6,532 bases of DNA from a virus (IMGVR_UViG_2660238548_000019); one strand, 5' to 3'. Positions 1,307-6,029 are shown, numbered from the stretch's first letter. Notes: generated by a model not told the origin, from the letters alone. Numbers and translations are program-made.

Positions 1307-1437
1307 TTATCCTGCAATACTTAAAATACACAATATTTAGAAAACTAATAGTGCCATATGCGATTTTTAAGATTTTGTTATTAATTGCTGTCGCACCTTT
1401 CTAAGGGGGGCAGGGTAACCCACAGAATTCCGGATAC

Positions 1438-1461
1438 AAAAAACCCGCGCATCGGCGGGTT
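1438..1461 (-). terminator. intrinsic terminator downstream of the specificity gene
   Basis: Minus strand reads AACCCGC-CGATGC-GCGGGTT followed by a T-run (plus A6 at 1438-1443), about 65 nt past the stop of the 1527..2621 gene. Confidence 0.55.
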
Positions 1462-1526
1462 AAGCAGCGTGGCAATGTAACCATTCTTATCATGATATGA
1501 GGATTTTTACGATTGTAAAATGTTTT

Positions 1527-2621
1527 TTAACTGACACCAGAATCATCATAACCGCGACTTGTTATAGCTTGCCTGTATGCGTTCATTTTGCGTTCTGCGT
1601 ACTGGACAACATCTTTAATGACAAGCTTATGAACAACTGAAATAAGGTCATTTATATAACAAAAGTCAGGTGACTTATTTTTCACTGGCAACCAAATAAC
1701 ATCGTTCTTAATTTTTCTATTACTAACACTATCCCCCCATGAATATTTATGTGAAATAGACCTATAAATACATGAAATAATGCCCAAATAAGCAAACTTT
1801 GTCCTTCCATCCTCATTGTTAACATAGAGTCGCAAATTATGACTGTCGTTTGAAAAAAAGTCTCGCTCCTGATAAGTTACAACGAATGTCTTACCACCAA
1901 TAAAAATACAGTTCCCTTTTTCCAAGAGTGAGTCATCATAGGCGATATAAGAACTAACAGAGTTATTATCACGGCTAGCACAAAGATAAGGAACATCCCC
2001 ACTATTTTCTATGATGTCTCTAGACAATATGTTTCCTGTATTGCACACTGAGAATAACTCAGTAACAGGAAAGCCTGAAAATTCAATATTTTTAAAATGC
2101 TCCAGGATAAGATAATCTTTTTCCGTTAGTTGGTAATCACTCAGCCCAGCAGCTATCAGGTATGCTTCCAGCTCTTCTATATGGGCCGCTTCCAGCTCTT
2201 CTATATAATTATCCATAAAAAACCAGTCAATTTCATTATTTTTCACTGGTAATGAGATGAAATATTCTCCATCTCTGAGTTTGGAACTCGATAACTGTTG
2301 ACCATAATTAAAACGCCCCTTTAAAGCTTTATTAATCATACTGGCAACATACAGTCCGCGCTTTGCATTAAAGTCGGACTTACTTGATTTTAATGTAAGA
2401 ACATGCACCTTCATTTCTACGCTGGCACAATAAGGATGATAAAAAGCATCTCCAAAAAAATTAACGCTTATAAAATTTTCATAATGCCTTGCATCATCCA
2501 TAAACTCGGTATCAAACTCTCCGATGATACCGTTTTGATCGCTCTTTGCTGAAACACGTTTGATTTTGCCTGGTTTTAATCTTCCTGAGGAGATAAGCGA
2601 GCCTGTGCTCACATAGAACAA
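1527..2621 (-). CDS. specificity subunit with two target-recognition domains (HsdS-like; comparable to BcgI B subunit)
   Basis: Track ORF starts at TTG 2621 with AGGA 8 nt upstream. The protein has an internal duplication typical of two-TRD specificity subunits: TRD starts VEWGEFRIGDLFYVSTGSLI versus IEFSGFPVTELFSVCNTGNIL, and TRD ends SKLRDGEYFISLPVKNNEIDWFF versus SNRKIKNDVIWLPVKNKSPDFCY. The first TRD-start motif lies upstream of the TTG in the same frame (open back to TGA 2705-2703) with no ATG/GTG/TTG, so the true N-terminus is unresolved. Confidence 0.6.
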   Translation of the reverse strand: MFYVSTGSLISSGRLKPGKIKRVSAKSDQNGIIGEFDTEFMDDARHYENFISVNFFGDAFYHPYCASVEMKVHVLTLKSSKSDFNAKRGLYVASMINKALKGRFNYGQQLSSSKLRDGEYFISLPVKNNEIDWFFMDNYIEELEAAHIEELEAYLIAAGLSDYQLTEKDYLILEHFKNIEFSGFPVTELFSVCNTGNILSRDIIENSGDVPYLCASRDNNSVSSYIAYDDSLLEKGNCIFIGGKTFVVTYQERDFFSNDSHNLRLYVNNEDGRTKFAYLGIISCIYRSISHKYSWGDSVSNRKIKNDVIWLPVKNKSPDFCYINDLISVVHKLVIKDVVQYAERKMNAYRQAITSRGYDDSGVS

Positions 2622-2640
2622 ATCGCCAATCCTGAACTCT

Positions 2641-2690
2641 CCCCACTCAACGCTTCTTAATTTATCGCTGAGCGGGGAATTTACTTTCCC
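2641..2690 (-). promoter_or_regulatory. candidate programmed -1 ribosomal frameshift cassette (slippery heptamer, spacer, hairpin) at the junction of the two R-M genes
   Basis: In the frame of the large gene the last codons are GCG GGA AAG TAA, giving heptamer G_GGA_AAG (minus 2690-2684, X_XXY_YYZ pattern) directly before the stop. A 6-nt spacer (TAAATT) is followed by a hairpin with 12-bp stem CCCCGCTCAGCG / CGTTGAGTGGGG (two G-U pairs, 13-nt loop; plus 2641-2677). The -1 frame after the slip reads GTA AAT TCC CCG..., which is the specificity-gene frame. Confidence 0.35.
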
Positions 2691-4642
2691 GCAAAATTGT
2701 TTTCACCTTGTTTTTTCAGTAATTGCGAGACCTCCCATGCAAGGTAATCACCTACCGTCTTTTTGAAATCCTCCAGCGTTGGCCTAGCATCTACTGGCCT
2801 GGTCTGATTCCAGTCCTCACCACTATCAGGATCGATTGTTCCCTCAAAATATTCATCCTCCGTAAAGATATTAAGGCAACCTTTCCCGAAGTGAACCAGA
2901 TCCACAACCTCCTGATAACGCTCTTTTGCACGATCGGCATCAACAAGATTGTTTCTTGCCTTTTTGCGATTAGAGCGAGCGTAGCCGTCATTGGAAAAGT
3001 CGATAAACTTAACAGCCTGTTTCGCGTTATGCGGAATTTTTACCTGAAAAACGTAAATGTACGTCTGAACGCTTGATTTACCAATAAACAGATCCGCAGG
3101 CATTTTGATGCTTGCCAGCAAGGTATTTTCCTTGAGTATTTTTTTGTTGTACTCCGTAGCCTTTCCTGTGCCAGCTGAACTCTGGATAATCACTGCAGCA
3201 TAGCCTTTATCCATCATCGACAGCGCCTTCTGCACGAAAATCATGCCGTTACCTTTAGCTGAATACGGAGGATTGAGAATAAATGCGTCCGCAGGGAATT
3301 TTTCTCCTGTTTTCCCAAATCCATACTTGCCGTCAAAATCGGCCAGCGAGTCTTTATTGAGGATATTCGAGCTACCATCCCCCATCAAAATCATATTCAG
3401 GATGGCCAGCATATAAATACTGGATAACACCTCAAGGCCAAGAAGCTGTTCAGCCTTGATTTGCGCTTCCTTAAGTTGTAGTTCGTTCGGTGAGTGAATA
3501 TTTTCTCTGGCGTCAATGAGCATTTCATTCATTGCAGCCACAAGCAATCCCGCAGAACCTGTAGCAAAATCCCACACATAGGAATCTTTGTTTACTCTGG
3601 CGAGTCGTGCCAGCAATGTGGCAACATAAGGTGGTGTCAGAACGACGTCATTGAGCTTGTCCTGCGTAAATCCAAGCCAGCGATACATCTCATTAAACAG
3701 TTTGCCCGTAAAATCGGTGGTCAGTCCAATTTTGTAATACTCCCCAAGATCATCAACAACTTTAACAAACACGCGCTTTAACTGGCTTTCACCGTTGACT
3801 GGTTTGTTAATGTTTTCAGTCCACAGCGTATTTTGCAACGAGCGCAAAATCATTTCTCTTTTTGTTTCAGGAACAGCTTTCAGCCTTAAAAAATTCCTTA
3901 TTTTCCTGAAAATAATATCACCATCACGCAAGTCCTCCTCCGTTGAAGAGGTCAGTTCTTTTTTATCCAGCGGTGCTAACTTTCCCGGAATCCCCAACGT
4001 TGCAATAACGGTAGCCACAACAAGGTAAACACGATCACTTTCACCAAGCCCCTTTTCATTCTGGTAAATATCGTTATTCAGACGGGAAAGTCGCGTGTCT
4101 ATCTCTTCCTCTTTGCTGGCCTTGATTTTTTCCAGTTCTTCGGGAGGAAGATTAAGCAGCTTTATCTTGTTGAGAAATCCATCAACATTTTTATCAGCAA
4201 GGAACGATAAGTCGGTGAATTCACCAACCTTCTGTCCGGCTCCTAAATTATTCTTTGATACGTACCACACGCCGATTTCATGATGCAGTTCGCCTGTACC
4301 ATCATCGCGCCAGCCGGTCATACCAATAGCAATAATATCAGGGTAATTGGTGAACTGAAGAAGTGCGTTGGCATAATGGACTGCGCCATTCACCGCGTAT
4401 CCATTAATATTTTTAAAATTCCATTCTTTTCTGGCATCTTTGTTCTCAATAATACCGTTGCTGCCAAGTCTGATAAGCCTGTCCTTGTAGCCTTTATACT
4501 CGATGAGAACGGGATACTGCTTGCCGTATTTGTCCTTAACAAGGAGTTTTACGTCGGGACGATTACCGCCTGCGCCGCCATTTTTCGAAAAATAAGCGTC
4601 CAGTGCGTTATCGATCTCTCCGTTAAGTGATGCATTCTGCAA
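2681..4642 (-). CDS. restriction-modification polypeptide: N-terminal PD-(D/E)xK nuclease-like region plus gamma-class N6-adenine DNA methyltransferase (Type IIB BcgI-A-like); 5' end probably extends through the heptamer repeat to ATG 4881 after a frame restoration
   Basis: Track ORF of 653 aa starting at TTG 4642. Motifs read in the translation: RPD (aa 28-30) then EYK (aa 48-50), a PD-x17-ExK spacing; VVLTPPYVATLL (motif X) then WDFATGSAG (motif I) then FILNPPYS (motif IV), the gamma-class order. Size and two-gene layout match my recollection of BcgI (A about 637 aa, B about 341 aa). The frame stays open upstream of 4642 through the whole repeat as plausible protein (...TSSKSRKSVKSVEPEITELANSWLKSYRLDYK) with no in-frame start, until a stop at 4888-4886. 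Confidence 0.6.
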   Translation of the reverse strand: MQNASLNGEIDNALDAYFSKNGGAGGNRPDVKLLVKDKYGKQYPVLIEYKGYKDRLIRLGSNGIIENKDARKEWNFKNINGYAVNGAVHYANALLQFTNYPDIIAIGMTGWRDDGTGELHHEIGVWYVSKNNLGAGQKVGEFTDLSFLADKNVDGFLNKIKLLNLPPEELEKIKASKEEEIDTRLSRLNNDIYQNEKGLGESDRVYLVVATVIATLGIPGKLAPLDKKELTSSTEEDLRDGDIIFRKIRNFLRLKAVPETKREMILRSLQNTLWTENINKPVNGESQLKRVFVKVVDDLGEYYKIGLTTDFTGKLFNEMYRWLGFTQDKLNDVVLTPPYVATLLARLARVNKDSYVWDFATGSAGLLVAAMNEMLIDARENIHSPNELQLKEAQIKAEQLLGLEVLSSIYMLAILNMILMGDGSSNILNKDSLADFDGKYGFGKTGEKFPADAFILNPPYSAKGNGMIFVQKALSMMDKGYAAVIIQSSAGTGKATEYNKKILKENTLLASIKMPADLFIGKSSVQTYIYVFQVKIPHNAKQAVKFIDFSNDGYARSNRKKARNNLVDADRAKERYQEVVDLVHFGKGCLNIFTEDEYFEGTIDPDSGEDWNQTRPVDARPTLEDFKKTVGDYLAWEVSQLLKKQGENNFAGK

Positions 4643-4732
4643 CTTGTAATCAAGCCTGTAAGATTTAAGCCATGAGTTCGCCAGTTCGGTAATTTCCGGC
4701 TCAACAGATTTTACAGACTTTCTTGATTTACT

Positions 4733-4872
4733 GCTGGTCGCTGGTCGCTGGTCGCTGGTCGCTGGTCGCTGGTCGCTGGTCGCTGGTCGCTGGTCGCTGG
4801 TCGCTGGTCGCTGGTCGCTGGTCGCTGGTCGCTGGTCGCTGGTCGCTGGTCGCTGGTCGCTGGTCGCTGGTC
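4733..4872. repeat. perfect tandem heptanucleotide repeat (GCTGGTC)x20 (140 bp); GACCAGC on the coding strand
   Basis: Counted directly: 20 uninterrupted 7-bp units from 4733 to 4872. Because 7 is not a multiple of 3, all three frames translate the same heptad (TSDQRPA) with no stop codons. Confidence 0.97.
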
Positions 4873-5055
4873 TGGCAGCATAAAATCATCCTTTTATGAA
4901 AATCAACGTTTTTTGAGCACTCGCACACAAAAAATTACCGCATTGGTTGCAACGACAACCTTCATTTTGCGGAGCATATGACAAATAAAGTACGGGTGCG
5001 TTGAGGATGCCAGACACATCAGAGGTGGCGGGAGATTACTCCCCTGCCTGGTCTC

Positions 5056-5211
5056 TTACTTCTCAGATTCGTAGTCTACGAAGACAGCGACCTCCGTCTG
5101 GCCGGTTCGGATTCGTACCTCGCAGAAGTCTTTCCTCGTTACCAGTGCTATCACTACGACGGTAATACAGATGACGATCAGGGCGATTAACATCGCCTTT
5201 TGCTGCTTCAT
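5056..5211 (-). CDS. hok: Hok/Gef-family type I toxin (51 aa)
   Basis: Not in the ORF track. ATG 5211-5209, TAA 5058-5056. Translation MKQQKAMLIALIVICITVVVIALVTRKDFCEVRIRTGQTEVAVFVDYESEK is a classic Hok/Gef/RelF-like sequence. The leader just upstream reads AGGCAAGGAGAAGTAGGCTATG, like the hok leader of plasmid R1 as I recall it. Confidence 0.85.
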   Translation of the reverse strand: MKQQKAMLIALIVICITVVVIALVTRKDFCEVRIRTGQTEVAVFVDYESEK

Positions 5212-5214
5212 AGC

Positions 5215-5268
5215 CTACTTCTCCTTGCCTTTCGGCACGTAAGAGGCTAACCTAAGTTTGTAAGTCAT
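5215..5268 (-). CDS. mok-like leader ORF (17 aa) ending 3 nt before the hok start
   Basis: ATG 5268-5266 to TAG 5217-5215, translation MTYKLRLASLRAEGKEK. Its position matches the mok/hok coupling arrangement, but it is much shorter than R1 mok. Confidence 0.35.
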   Translation of the reverse strand: MTYKLRLASYVPKGKEK

Positions 5269-5386
5269 AGATTTGGCCTCAGATTAATGTTAAGCGTCCT
5301 GCAAGACGCGTAATGTTAACTGGGGCTTTTCTCTGTCTGCCTTACGGCTGCATGCCCGAGGCAGACAGCCTCAAGCACCCGCAGCT

Positions 5387-5414
5387 ATTCTACAGTAAAA
5401 ACTCGCGCTTTCAA
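5387..5414 (-). promoter_or_regulatory. sigma70-type promoter, most likely for the hok mRNA; -35 overlaps the Q stop codon
   Basis: Minus strand: -35 TTGAAA (5414-5409), 16-nt spacer, -10 TAGAAT (5392-5387), putative start near 5380 at GGGTGCTTGAGGCTGTCTGCCTC, which resembles the 5' end of R1 hok mRNA. A 9-bp stem hairpin (5333-5368) follows. Confidence 0.45.
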
Positions 5415-5836
5415 TTTCCCGCACGTCCGGCAAACTGACTGGCCTGTGATCCTGATGGTTCACGCTCAACGTACCTGTCCATTTCCAGCTTTACTCCCTG
5501 CATGATCAACATCCCCTCAATAACACCTTCTGCTTTTTGCAGTACCCGCCCGGCCCAGCAATCAGAGCGCCCATGCTTACGGCCCAGTGACATAAGCGTC
5601 ATCCCGAACACATAATAATCATACAGAAAATCATGCAAATCGCTGTTATTGACGTTCAGTTGCGCCATGCAATTGCTGATAATCAGCGCATCGTCATCGG
5701 TACACTGAGGCCGTGATTTAACCTTTGACGGGATCAGCCCCTTAAATCCGGCGGCAATGGGCGACCAGCTCACATCCTCATGATTATTGGCCACCCATGC
5801 GCCCCAGCGTTCAAGCACCTGCTGAATATCACGCAT
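5411..5836 (-). CDS. Q: late-gene antiterminator Q (phage 82/21-type, QuuD-like)
   Basis: Track ORF 5411..5920; I start it at the internal ATG 5836-5834 ([24 protein letters not shown]...), which overlaps the ninH stop in an ATGCGTGA arrangement. The N-terminal sequence matches my recollection of DLP12 QuuD-type Q proteins. Confidence 0.8.
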
Positions 5837-6029
5837 CAGAGTCTTTCCCCTTATCCCATCCACGGTGAACCATAAGGACACCGTTGACGACGGCGTGCCG
5901 TTTGCCTTCTTTATCGCCAATATATTTTCTGACCGTGTTGCGACTACAGTTCAGTATTCTGGCTACCTCGGTCTGATTTTCATATGCCTCAACGAGCATG
6001 TCAGGAATGGTTTTTACTGTGAACGTCAT
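5829..6029 (-). CDS. ninH: NinH
   Basis: 66 aa, [42 protein letters not shown]..., close to lambda NinH as I recall it. Its start overlaps the ninG stop (ATGA). Confidence 0.8.

Follow-up and report, generated by a model that had tools for sequence, protein, structure and literature searches.

A BcgI-like restriction-modification cassette, probably phase-variable through a heptanucleotide repeat, as cargo of a lambdoid prophage

Here we analyze a 6,532-nucleotide stretch of viral DNA (IMGVR_UViG_2660238548_000019), referred to in the following as the window, in which the relevant genes all lie on the minus strand. It probably harbors a BcgI-like Type IIB restriction-modification (R-M) system, carried together with a hok/sok toxin-antitoxin cassette as cargo of a lambdoid E. 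coli prophage between the antiterminator gene Q and the promoter pR'. The system is encoded by two genes, one for a large polypeptide that unites nuclease and methyltransferase (RM) and one for a separate specificity subunit (S), and RM appears to be phase-variable via a (CAGCGAC)n tract at its 5' end. A preliminary description of this DNA had proposed the enzyme class and hinted at a reading frame to be restored, without naming the repeat tract as the cause of the frameshift; this tract is the most interesting part of the locus.

The assignment to Type IIB is supported by sequence comparisons and structural models, with BsaXI serving as the direct comparison and BcgI as a comparison by architecture. 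The nuclease and the N6-adenine methyltransferase reside in one RM polypeptide, the nuclease being N-terminal, as in Type IIB enzymes. The sequence signatures that had been reported for this chain, RPD-x17-EYK at its N-terminus followed by the gamma-class motifs TPPY, DFATGSAG and NPPY, are all found in it at the expected positions (Table 1). Counting RM residues from position 4732, the nuclease motif reads GGNRPD-x17-IEYKG, with P59-D60 at 4553-4558 (D60 at 4553-4555), E78 at 4499-4501 and K80 at 4493-4495. In an alignment of 42 full-length relatives (A1), which extends down to 29% identity, these four residues are at least 90% conserved, and the S-adenosylmethionine (AdoMet)-binding and NPPY residues are invariant, with T366, P367, D388, G392, N487 and P489 among the invariant positions; E11 is invariant in the relatives as well. 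The REBASE-derived nuclease-methyltransferase fusion model PDLC03616 of PADLOC matches RM from end to end (E 3e-232), and the 637-position nuclease-methyltransferase model PDLC03602 matches it with E 1e-44. By contrast, Pfam recognizes only N6_Mtase, plus a sub-threshold VRR_NUC match at the N-terminus, and the NCBIfam model hsdM scores 36 bits against a cutoff of 243.

The structural evidence points in the same direction. The AlphaFold (AF2) model of RM, built on the alignment of the 42 relatives, has a mean predicted local distance difference test (pLDDT) score of 87.7. A Foldseek search of this model against the PDB gives matches to Type I HsdM, which cover the methyltransferase part, to the BsaXI RM chain over 676 columns (E 8e-14, yet with a template modeling score of only 0.39) and, further down, to DrdV, BpuSI, LlaBIII and MmeI. 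Fold matches obtained with the whole-protein and domain models include BpuSI (7.4), the EcoR124I subunit HsdR (6.1) and DrdV (6.0), and also Hjc resolvases, Cas4 and FokI. Given the conserved residues and these fold matches, sequence and model together identify the N-terminal domain as a restriction-endonuclease-fold domain with an intact catalytic triad. A profile search likewise connects the methyltransferase part with HsdM structures, and in the model, little follows the methyltransferase domain before the chain terminates in a single long helix. For both RM and S, searches of the single sequences against PDB sequences returned no matches, such that profiles and structure models were required.

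S, the smaller gene, had been described as a specificity protein with duplicated target recognition domains (TRDs), and this is borne out by two Methylase_S stretches, by PADLOC Specificity_II and by a profile match to the Type I specificity protein MG438 (HsdS, 1ydx). It matches PADLOC models for a 'Type II specificity subunit', one of them with 341 positions. An alignment with 20 relatives (A3) shows TRD1, which varies, then a central helix, then TRD2, whose conservation throughout the family is striking, and lastly a C-terminal helix. The system thus has what is expected of Type IIB: its specificity subunit is separate and combines two TRDs with two helical regions that are conserved. The conserved TRD2, together with the TGA/TCA half-sites of NgoAVIII and Hpy99XXII, offers a clue to the recognition sequence, although only as a lead.

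Overall, the comparison with REBASE-derived and Pfam models places RM in a nuclease-methyltransferase fusion family and S in a specificity family, and the Type IIB (BcgI-like) reading of the preliminary description agrees with the PADLOC models, the conserved D60/E78/K80, the alignment with BsaXI over 676 columns, the S profile and an existing annotation: in the deposited record of phage PhiR12_3 (from ECOR13), the RM gene already carries the remark 'BcgI alpha chain-like'. We also considered two other enzyme classes. A Type I system with a missing HsdR was rejected, since the M-like protein has its own nuclease domain and the cassette contains no HsdR gene. For single-chain Type IIG/IIL enzymes such as MmeI, BpuSI and DrdV, RM would need a C-terminal TRD; it has none, and specificity resides in a separate gene. 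As had been claimed, open reading frame (ORF) and Pfam scans detect no helicase, HsdR-like or translocase gene between Q and the tRNAs, nor is one annotated in 16 related loci, a statement that refers to the locus and not to the rest of the genome.

The RM gene is preceded by the heptanucleotide tract. Direct translation confirms that the frame has to be restored: owing to the perfect 7-bp repeat at 4733-4872, neither the ATG at 4881 (ATG1) nor the one at 4889 (ATG2) shares the frame of the RM body, and their products end after 56 and 53 codons, respectively. By frame arithmetic, one more unit would put ATG1 in frame with the RM body, and one unit less would restore ATG2. The tract itself has no stop in any of the three frames and codes for (SDQRPAT)n. 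It lies between the start codons and the conserved RM N-terminus (around 4732) and has a unit that is not a multiple of three, two properties of a contingency locus.

That RM starts upstream of this tract, and not at the annotated TTG 4642, can be seen from its N-terminal residues. Taken from TTG 4642, the large ORF covers 2681-4642, but its frame remains open upstream, to 4732, through the repeat and beyond. Between the tract and TTG 4642, this frame contains no ATG, GTG or TTG, and the Neisseria flavescens orthologue, which begins MTQASKKSNKSIEPNIADLANGW..., aligns to residues 1-30 of the window RM; together, this requires a start upstream of the tract. Helix 1 of the nuclease domain (pLDDT 96-98), which contains E11, is encoded by the 30 codons preceding TTG 4642, such that a start at this TTG would delete the helix together with its invariant glutamate. 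Both ATGs serve as starts in deposited proteins: P0006 and P0009 begin MLPDQRPATSDQ... and P0010 begins MILCCQTSDQRPAT..., each fused in frame to the RM body. RefSeq nevertheless uses TTG 4642 in every copy (WP_001178557.1, 653 residues), which means that automatic annotation mis-starts the gene. On the plus strand, ORFs annotated as 'YXWGXW repeat' or 'hypothetical protein' (4723-4899) were rejected as real genes, as they exist only by virtue of a repeat that is open in every frame; the length of the 'YXWGXW repeat-containing protein' ORFs in RefSeq follows the copy number.

To what extent the tract varies was assessed in 16 loci, 15 from complete E. coli genomes and one from a complete phage genome, each translated from both ATGs. 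These contain 88, 82, 63, 55, 82, 57, 81, 49, 17+47, 82, 98, 78, 65, 30, 63 and 120 units; all long-read copies thus range from 30 to 120 units, or from 19 to 120 with the window included. ATG1 is in frame in three of the 16 loci, yielding full-length products of 840-966 codons, ATG2 in six, with full-length products of 761-880 codons, and in the remaining seven neither is, resulting in a truncated product. As in other contingency loci, the copy number differs among close relatives (55, 82 and 57 units in O111:H8 isolates; 82 in strain G6/7 versus 98 in strain G8), and in-frame and out-of-frame alleles occur side by side. The start region and the tract are present in RM alleles of 85-98% identity, with ATG2 lost in one of them, and their presence is implied in Salmonella by a prophage contig that starts exactly at the distal edge of the tract. 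IMG/VR contigs end inside the tract, and 841 'partial' proteins cluster with P0001. The tract breaks or collapses short-read assemblies, and the 19-20 units of the window, and hence its exact frame, could be an underestimate from such a collapse. In two loci, the tract is interrupted into blocks, with 17+47 units in L010 (E110019) and 55+25+20 units in L021 (IMG/VR); interruptions of this kind could stabilize the tract or lock its phase.

Outside this group, the enzyme is widespread. The RM family comprises 279 cluster representatives at E ≤ 1e-30 in an exhaustive HMMER search, and a scan of one genome per species yielded 267 loci that encode RM relatives. The best 80 of these (L041-L120) are about 70% identical and come from Clostridia, Bacteroidota, Spirochaetes, Campylobacterota, Melainabacteria and several proteobacterial classes; N. 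gonorrhoeae is not among them. None of the 80 has a 5' repeat in RM, while one has a G10 run inside the S gene. Judged by this sequence comparison, the (CAGCGAC)n tract is a local innovation. Across L041-L120, the TRD2 of S is almost unchanged, which marks an unusually uniform and widely transferred R-M family.

S has a repeat of its own, a 24-bp direct repeat within its central helix. It occurs in 1, 2, 3 or 4 units among otherwise near-identical E. coli alleles (P0135, P0123, P0124 and P0121), and the central-helix repeat also varies in relatives from Yersinia and Microcystis. By analogy with EcoR124I and EcoR124II, the repeat number could change the spacer of the recognized site. The start of S is less clear than its domain layout. 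Annotators have used ATT 2630, TTG 2621 and GTG 2612. Judging from the sequence, S is probably translated from TTG 2621, which is preceded by AGGA at a distance of 8 nucleotides, and the natural S relatives P0169 and P0170, which have the same TRD1 type, start even further in. Upstream of TTG 2621, the frame reads ...SPLSDKLRSVEWGEFRIGDLF, matching the N-termini of the ATG-starting relatives P0225 and P0175. A hairpin that immediately follows the RM stop codon and precedes the candidate starts of S covers the segment that encodes the S start in relatives and includes GGGGAG in its 3' arm; it may couple or limit S translation.

Taken together, we propose the following course of events. RM translation would start at the ATGs upstream of the tract, where slipped-strand gain or loss of 7-bp units, as in neuO and other contingency loci, would shift the RM frame and toggle the gene between ON (from ATG1 with its good Shine-Dalgarno sequence), possibly weak ON (from ATG2) and OFF. 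In-frame RM would have about 70-280 additional residues at its N-terminus, a tail of (SDQRPAT)n. If it works like BcgI and BsaXI, two RM would bind one S, forming an (RM)2S complex that reads a bipartite site, methylates one adenine per half-site and thereby protects host and prophage DNA, whereas unmodified sites in incoming DNA would be excised by cuts on both sides. Through the toggling of the RM frame, a lysogen population would become a mix of restricting and modifying cells on the one hand and non-restricting cells on the other. An active restriction enzyme at this position raises the matter of self-protection, which could in principle be supplied by the enzyme's own methyltransferase: BcgI-type methyltransferases modify both strands (PMC3874165). 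In an extended form of this proposal, which we consider possible but put forward only tentatively, the system would be a three-state Type IIB contingency locus of E. coli and Salmonella lambdoid prophages, in which the tail tunes activity as repeat length does in NeuO and the S repeat shifts the spacer.

Several points weigh against a functional, switching system. The window copy itself reads OFF, and we infer restriction, methylation and switching from analogous systems. In S, no canonical start (ATG) precedes the conserved WGEFRIGDLF segment in frame upstream of TTG 2621, and the protein may be poorly translated as a result. H. pylori BcgI-like relatives with the same start defect in S were inactive until engineered (PMC3936762), and the likewise BcgI-like NgoAVIII shows no detectable methylation in gonococci. 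As ATG2 lacks a properly spaced Shine-Dalgarno sequence, it is possible that six of the nine 'in-frame' loci are not truly ON. A tract that drifts without selection would also be expected to give frame states near one third each, and tracts of 50-120 units far exceed the needs of a switch, a hint that the tract has a different or a further role. Finally, long-read consensus sequences may miscount by one unit, which could change single frame calls but not the spread of copy numbers.

Some of these points could also be read as signs of a decaying, non-functional remnant, with a frameshifted RM, an S without start and a repeat that is merely an expanding selfish or neutral microsatellite without regulatory role. 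RM is out of frame in the window and in seven of the 16 complete copies, S has no canonical start ahead of its conserved N-terminus and is split into fragments by RefSeq in some identical loci, IS1 underlies the match in one genome, and the related H. pylori and gonococcal systems are silent. We still regard decay as unlikely. The RM (683 codons) and S (364 codons) frames are intact in all copies examined; the catalytic motifs are intact; tract length is the sole lesion, and a reversible one; nine of the 16 loci have full-length ORFs of 761-966 codons; and the start region has been kept across diverged alleles. Even the S start is less of an anomaly in view of the AGGA before TTG 2621 and of natural relatives that begin further downstream. 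It seems quite improbable, on the other hand, that the system is functional but serves mainly as a switchable epigenetic regulator (phasevarion), or as a device of the phage that marks progeny DNA or attacks competing prophages on induction, rather than in host defense. While the position of the cassette in the early rightward unit, downstream of Q and upstream of pR', would allow its expression upon induction, the conserved nuclease motif has remained intact, whereas loss of restriction is frequent among pure regulators, and three non-switching Type I systems in E. coli were found to be without regulatory effect (PMC8287963).

The remaining alternative takes the 653-residue protein from TTG 4642 as the real product and the repeat as part of a 5' leader or promoter, where it would tune transcription or translation by spacing and not by frame, if it has any effect at all. 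Phase variation through promoter-borne repeat tracts is known, and TTG 4642 is the start chosen by the NCBI pipeline in all RefSeq copies (WP_001178557.1). To this alternative we attach the least weight, as the 30 upstream codons are conserved at the protein level with the N-termini of orthologues from other phyla and form helix 1 with its invariant E11 (pLDDT 96-98), and as the TTG has no Shine-Dalgarno sequence, while a well-spaced AAGGA-ATG lies just upstream of a tract that is open in all frames. We therefore favor the reading as a BcgI-like system with a phase-variable RM.

In architecture, this system resembles BcgI and BsaXI, with one RM polypeptide (N-terminal PD-(D/E)xK nuclease and gamma-class N6-adenine methyltransferase), a separate two-TRD S and no translocase (PMC3874165, PMC11997821). 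The sizes of its genes, 653-683 and 364 codons, are near those of the matched PADLOC models with 637 and 341 positions. In sequence, however, RM is only 16% identical to that of BsaXI, with a profile match (E 1e-7) restricted to the methyltransferase core, and at this level its methyltransferase part is closer to Type I HsdM. Further differences are the 5' repeat tract in RM and the location in a prophage. The two-gene layout is shared with Hpy99XXII (JHP1364/JHP1365), HP1471/HP1472 and NgoAVIII. With the S of the window, the S subunit P0175 from H. pylori shares about 48% identity and both TRD types, and in the H. pylori systems, too, no start is obvious for the S gene past the RM stop. HP1471/2 and JHP1364/5, the BcgI-like systems of H. 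pylori, have a poly-G tract in S and are prone to phase variation (PMC3936762); JHP1364/5 is Hpy99XXII, with TCAN6TRG as its recognition sequence. The G10 run in the S gene of one of the best 80 loci resembles this poly-G tract. Here, by contrast, a heptanucleotide tract resides in RM instead of a poly-G tract in S, and the genes are prophage cargo instead of chromosomal.

With respect to the switch, the likeness is to neuO, the E. coli K1 capsule O-acetyltransferase gene. Both are cargo of E. coli prophages, with a heptanucleotide repeat in the 5' coding region whose copy number sets ON and OFF and which is translated into an N-terminal heptad tail, putatively so in the case of RM. In neuO of prophage CUS-3, this repeat comprises 3-53 units in complete genomes, about two thirds of which are OFF (PMC13001214). 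The unit differs, however (CAGCGAC here, AAGACTC in neuO), as do the proteins, an R-M enzyme and an unrelated acetyltransferase, and the tract described here reaches up to 120 copies and may have a third state through a second ATG in another frame. Likewise, simple sequence repeats in R-M genes switch methylation and restriction in the phase-variable systems of Type I and of Type III known as phasevarions (PMC7383803, PMC5909438), and a repeat-switched R-M gene is also on record for the Type IIG enzyme Cj0031 of Campylobacter jejuni (Anjum et al. 2016, as cited in PMC13076061). Our system differs from these in being Type IIB with a separate S, in its enterobacterial host, where such loci are rare, in its prophage site and in its much longer tract; the text of a survey on Type I phase variation mentions neither Escherichia nor Type IIB or Type IIG. 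Finally, the central helix of S, with its short in-frame repeat, recalls EcoR124I and EcoR124II, in which such a repeat change alters the spacer of the bipartite site. Here as there, the repeat varies in number among near-identical alleles, albeit with a unit of 8 residues (1-4 units) instead of 4 and in a different class of enzyme.

Both the enzyme class and the family are known, with existing models in defense-system databases, and for an R-M moron, a prophage is an unremarkable place. What looks unreported is the repeat-gated prophage version, to which neuO of CUS-3 comes nearest in mechanism and prophage setting and the poly-G S genes of H. pylori in enzyme family. In the literature, we found no description of this locus, of a heptanucleotide-gated Type IIB system or of an R-M system switched by a simple sequence repeat in an E. 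coli prophage. A methylome paper on O111:H- (PMC6602927) treats a different Type IIG enzyme, and a preprint on phage contingency loci is confined to T-even phages. E. coli is usually seen as poor in repeat-driven contingency loci, with neuO as the textbook exception. If the extended form of our proposal is right, the system would be the first repeat-gated Type IIB enzyme and the second prophage gene known in E. coli to be switched by a simple sequence repeat, and the prophage would diversify both whether and what its lysogens restrict. A second contingency locus in E. coli would show that temperate phages hedge the immunity of their lysogens, here with a tract that gates a double-strand-break-making restriction enzyme in the regulatory heart of Shiga toxin (Stx)-type lambdoid prophages. 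This raises the question of how a cell survives the switching ON of a Type IIB nuclease while its chromosome is unmethylated, as hemimethylated DNA is the preferred methylation substrate of BcgI (PMC3592466, PMC6789123). It also suggests that methylome differences between otherwise clonal isolates of enterohemorrhagic and enteropathogenic E. coli may trace to the tract locus of RM. On the practical side, hundreds of deposited 'partial' proteins end at the tract, and a spurious repeat protein is called on the opposite strand.

Table 1. Features of the locus, with coordinates counted from the first nucleotide of the window
Feature	Coordinates	Strand	Basis or remarks
Antiterminator Q gene	5411-5839	minus	Pfam Phage_antitermQ, E 9e-48; RefSeq annotation of identical loci; upstream cargo boundary
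hok/mok/sok type I toxin-antitoxin cassette	4986-5393 (hok coding sequence 5056-5211)	minus	Pfam HOK_GEF; Rfam sok, 118 bits
ATG2	4887-4889	minus	Sequence, frame translation; other frame than ATG1, Shine-Dalgarno abutting
ATG1	4879-4881	minus	Sequence, frame translation; AAGGA (4889-4893) 7 nucleotides upstream
Simple sequence repeat (CAGCGAC)n, 19-20 perfect units	4733-4872	minus	Tandem Repeats Finder (TRF): period 7, 20.0 copies, 100% matches
RM gene body, 683 codons and stop	2681-4732	minus	Nuclease domain, helical linker, gamma-class N6-adenine methyltransferase; start must be upstream of repeat
N-terminal PD-(D/E)xK nuclease domain, residues 1-195	4148-4732	minus	E11 in helix 1
Methyltransferase motif TPPY (motif X region)	3626-3637	minus	Translation
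Methyltransferase motif DFATGSAG (motif I, AdoMet binding)	3548-3571	minus	Translation
Methyltransferase motif NPPY (motif IV)	3263-3274	minus	Translation
13-bp RNA hairpin, RM/S junction	2641-2678	minus	Fold -25 kcal/mol, z -5.0, 0/200 shuffles as stable
S (specificity) gene, 364 codons from TTG 2621	1527-2621	minus	Pfam Methylase_S, two stretches; PADLOC Specificity_II
24-bp in-frame direct repeat (IEELEAAH / IEELEAY), S central helix	2164-2204	minus	Sequence, alignment A3
Presumed pR' (TTTACA-16-TATCAT)	1492-1519	minus	Consensus scan, pairwise alignment with H-19B; downstream cargo boundary
Presumed tR'	1442-1461	minus	As for pR'
Phage site-specific DNA methyltransferase remnant, 3' end, N-terminus missing	1112-1264	minus	ORF; RefSeq pseudogene annotation in identical loci
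tRNA trio Met(CAT), Arg(TCG), Arg(TCT)	822-1071	minus	ARAGORN, Rfam, RefSeq

The surroundings of the two genes define the extent of the cargo. In minus-strand order, the window comprises NinG, NinH, Q, hok/sok, the tandem repeat, the large ORF (RM), the smaller ORF (S), a DNA methyltransferase remnant, three tRNAs and a TerB-family gene; hok/sok and the remnant are the only coding features besides RM and S between Q and the tRNAs. The G+C content is 34-45% across 1400-4600, compared with about 51% in the flanks, which is consistent with horizontally acquired cargo. Homology with phage H-19B starts at the S stop codon: in megablast, 1421-1534 is about 90% identical to an Stx-phage segment covering the end of Q and what follows it, and the alignment with H-19B reveals a promoter-like TTTACA-16-TATCAT and a hairpin-plus-T-run terminator just downstream of Q. 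We take the corresponding elements at 1442-1519 to be the pR'/tR' arrangement of H-19B. The preliminary description had placed the module between Q and the tRNAs, which holds and can be narrowed down to between Q and pR'. By sequence, the cargo is thus hok/sok plus RM plus S, inserted in the early rightward unit, upstream of the late promoter. A consensus scan between hok and ATG1 found no convincing dedicated promoter.

Owing to the inserted cargo, about 3.9 kb separate Q from the displaced pR'/tR' downstream. Compared with H-19B Q, the resident Q has 73% identity and a different C-terminal tail (the last ~15 codons). At 4986-5393, the DNA is 91% identical to hokW/mokW/sokW of phage 933W, where hokW/sokW are located at the opposite end of the genome, whereas here hok/sok accompanies the R-M genes. 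The resident orphan phage methylase has been reduced to its 3' end in this lineage. A tRNA trio with two tRNA-Arg genes is the arrangement that adjoins Q in Stx-type phages. Of the three tRNA genes in the window, the one at 996-1071 is identified by ARAGORN as tRNA-Met (anticodon CAT), while RefSeq annotates the identical gene as tRNA-Ile.

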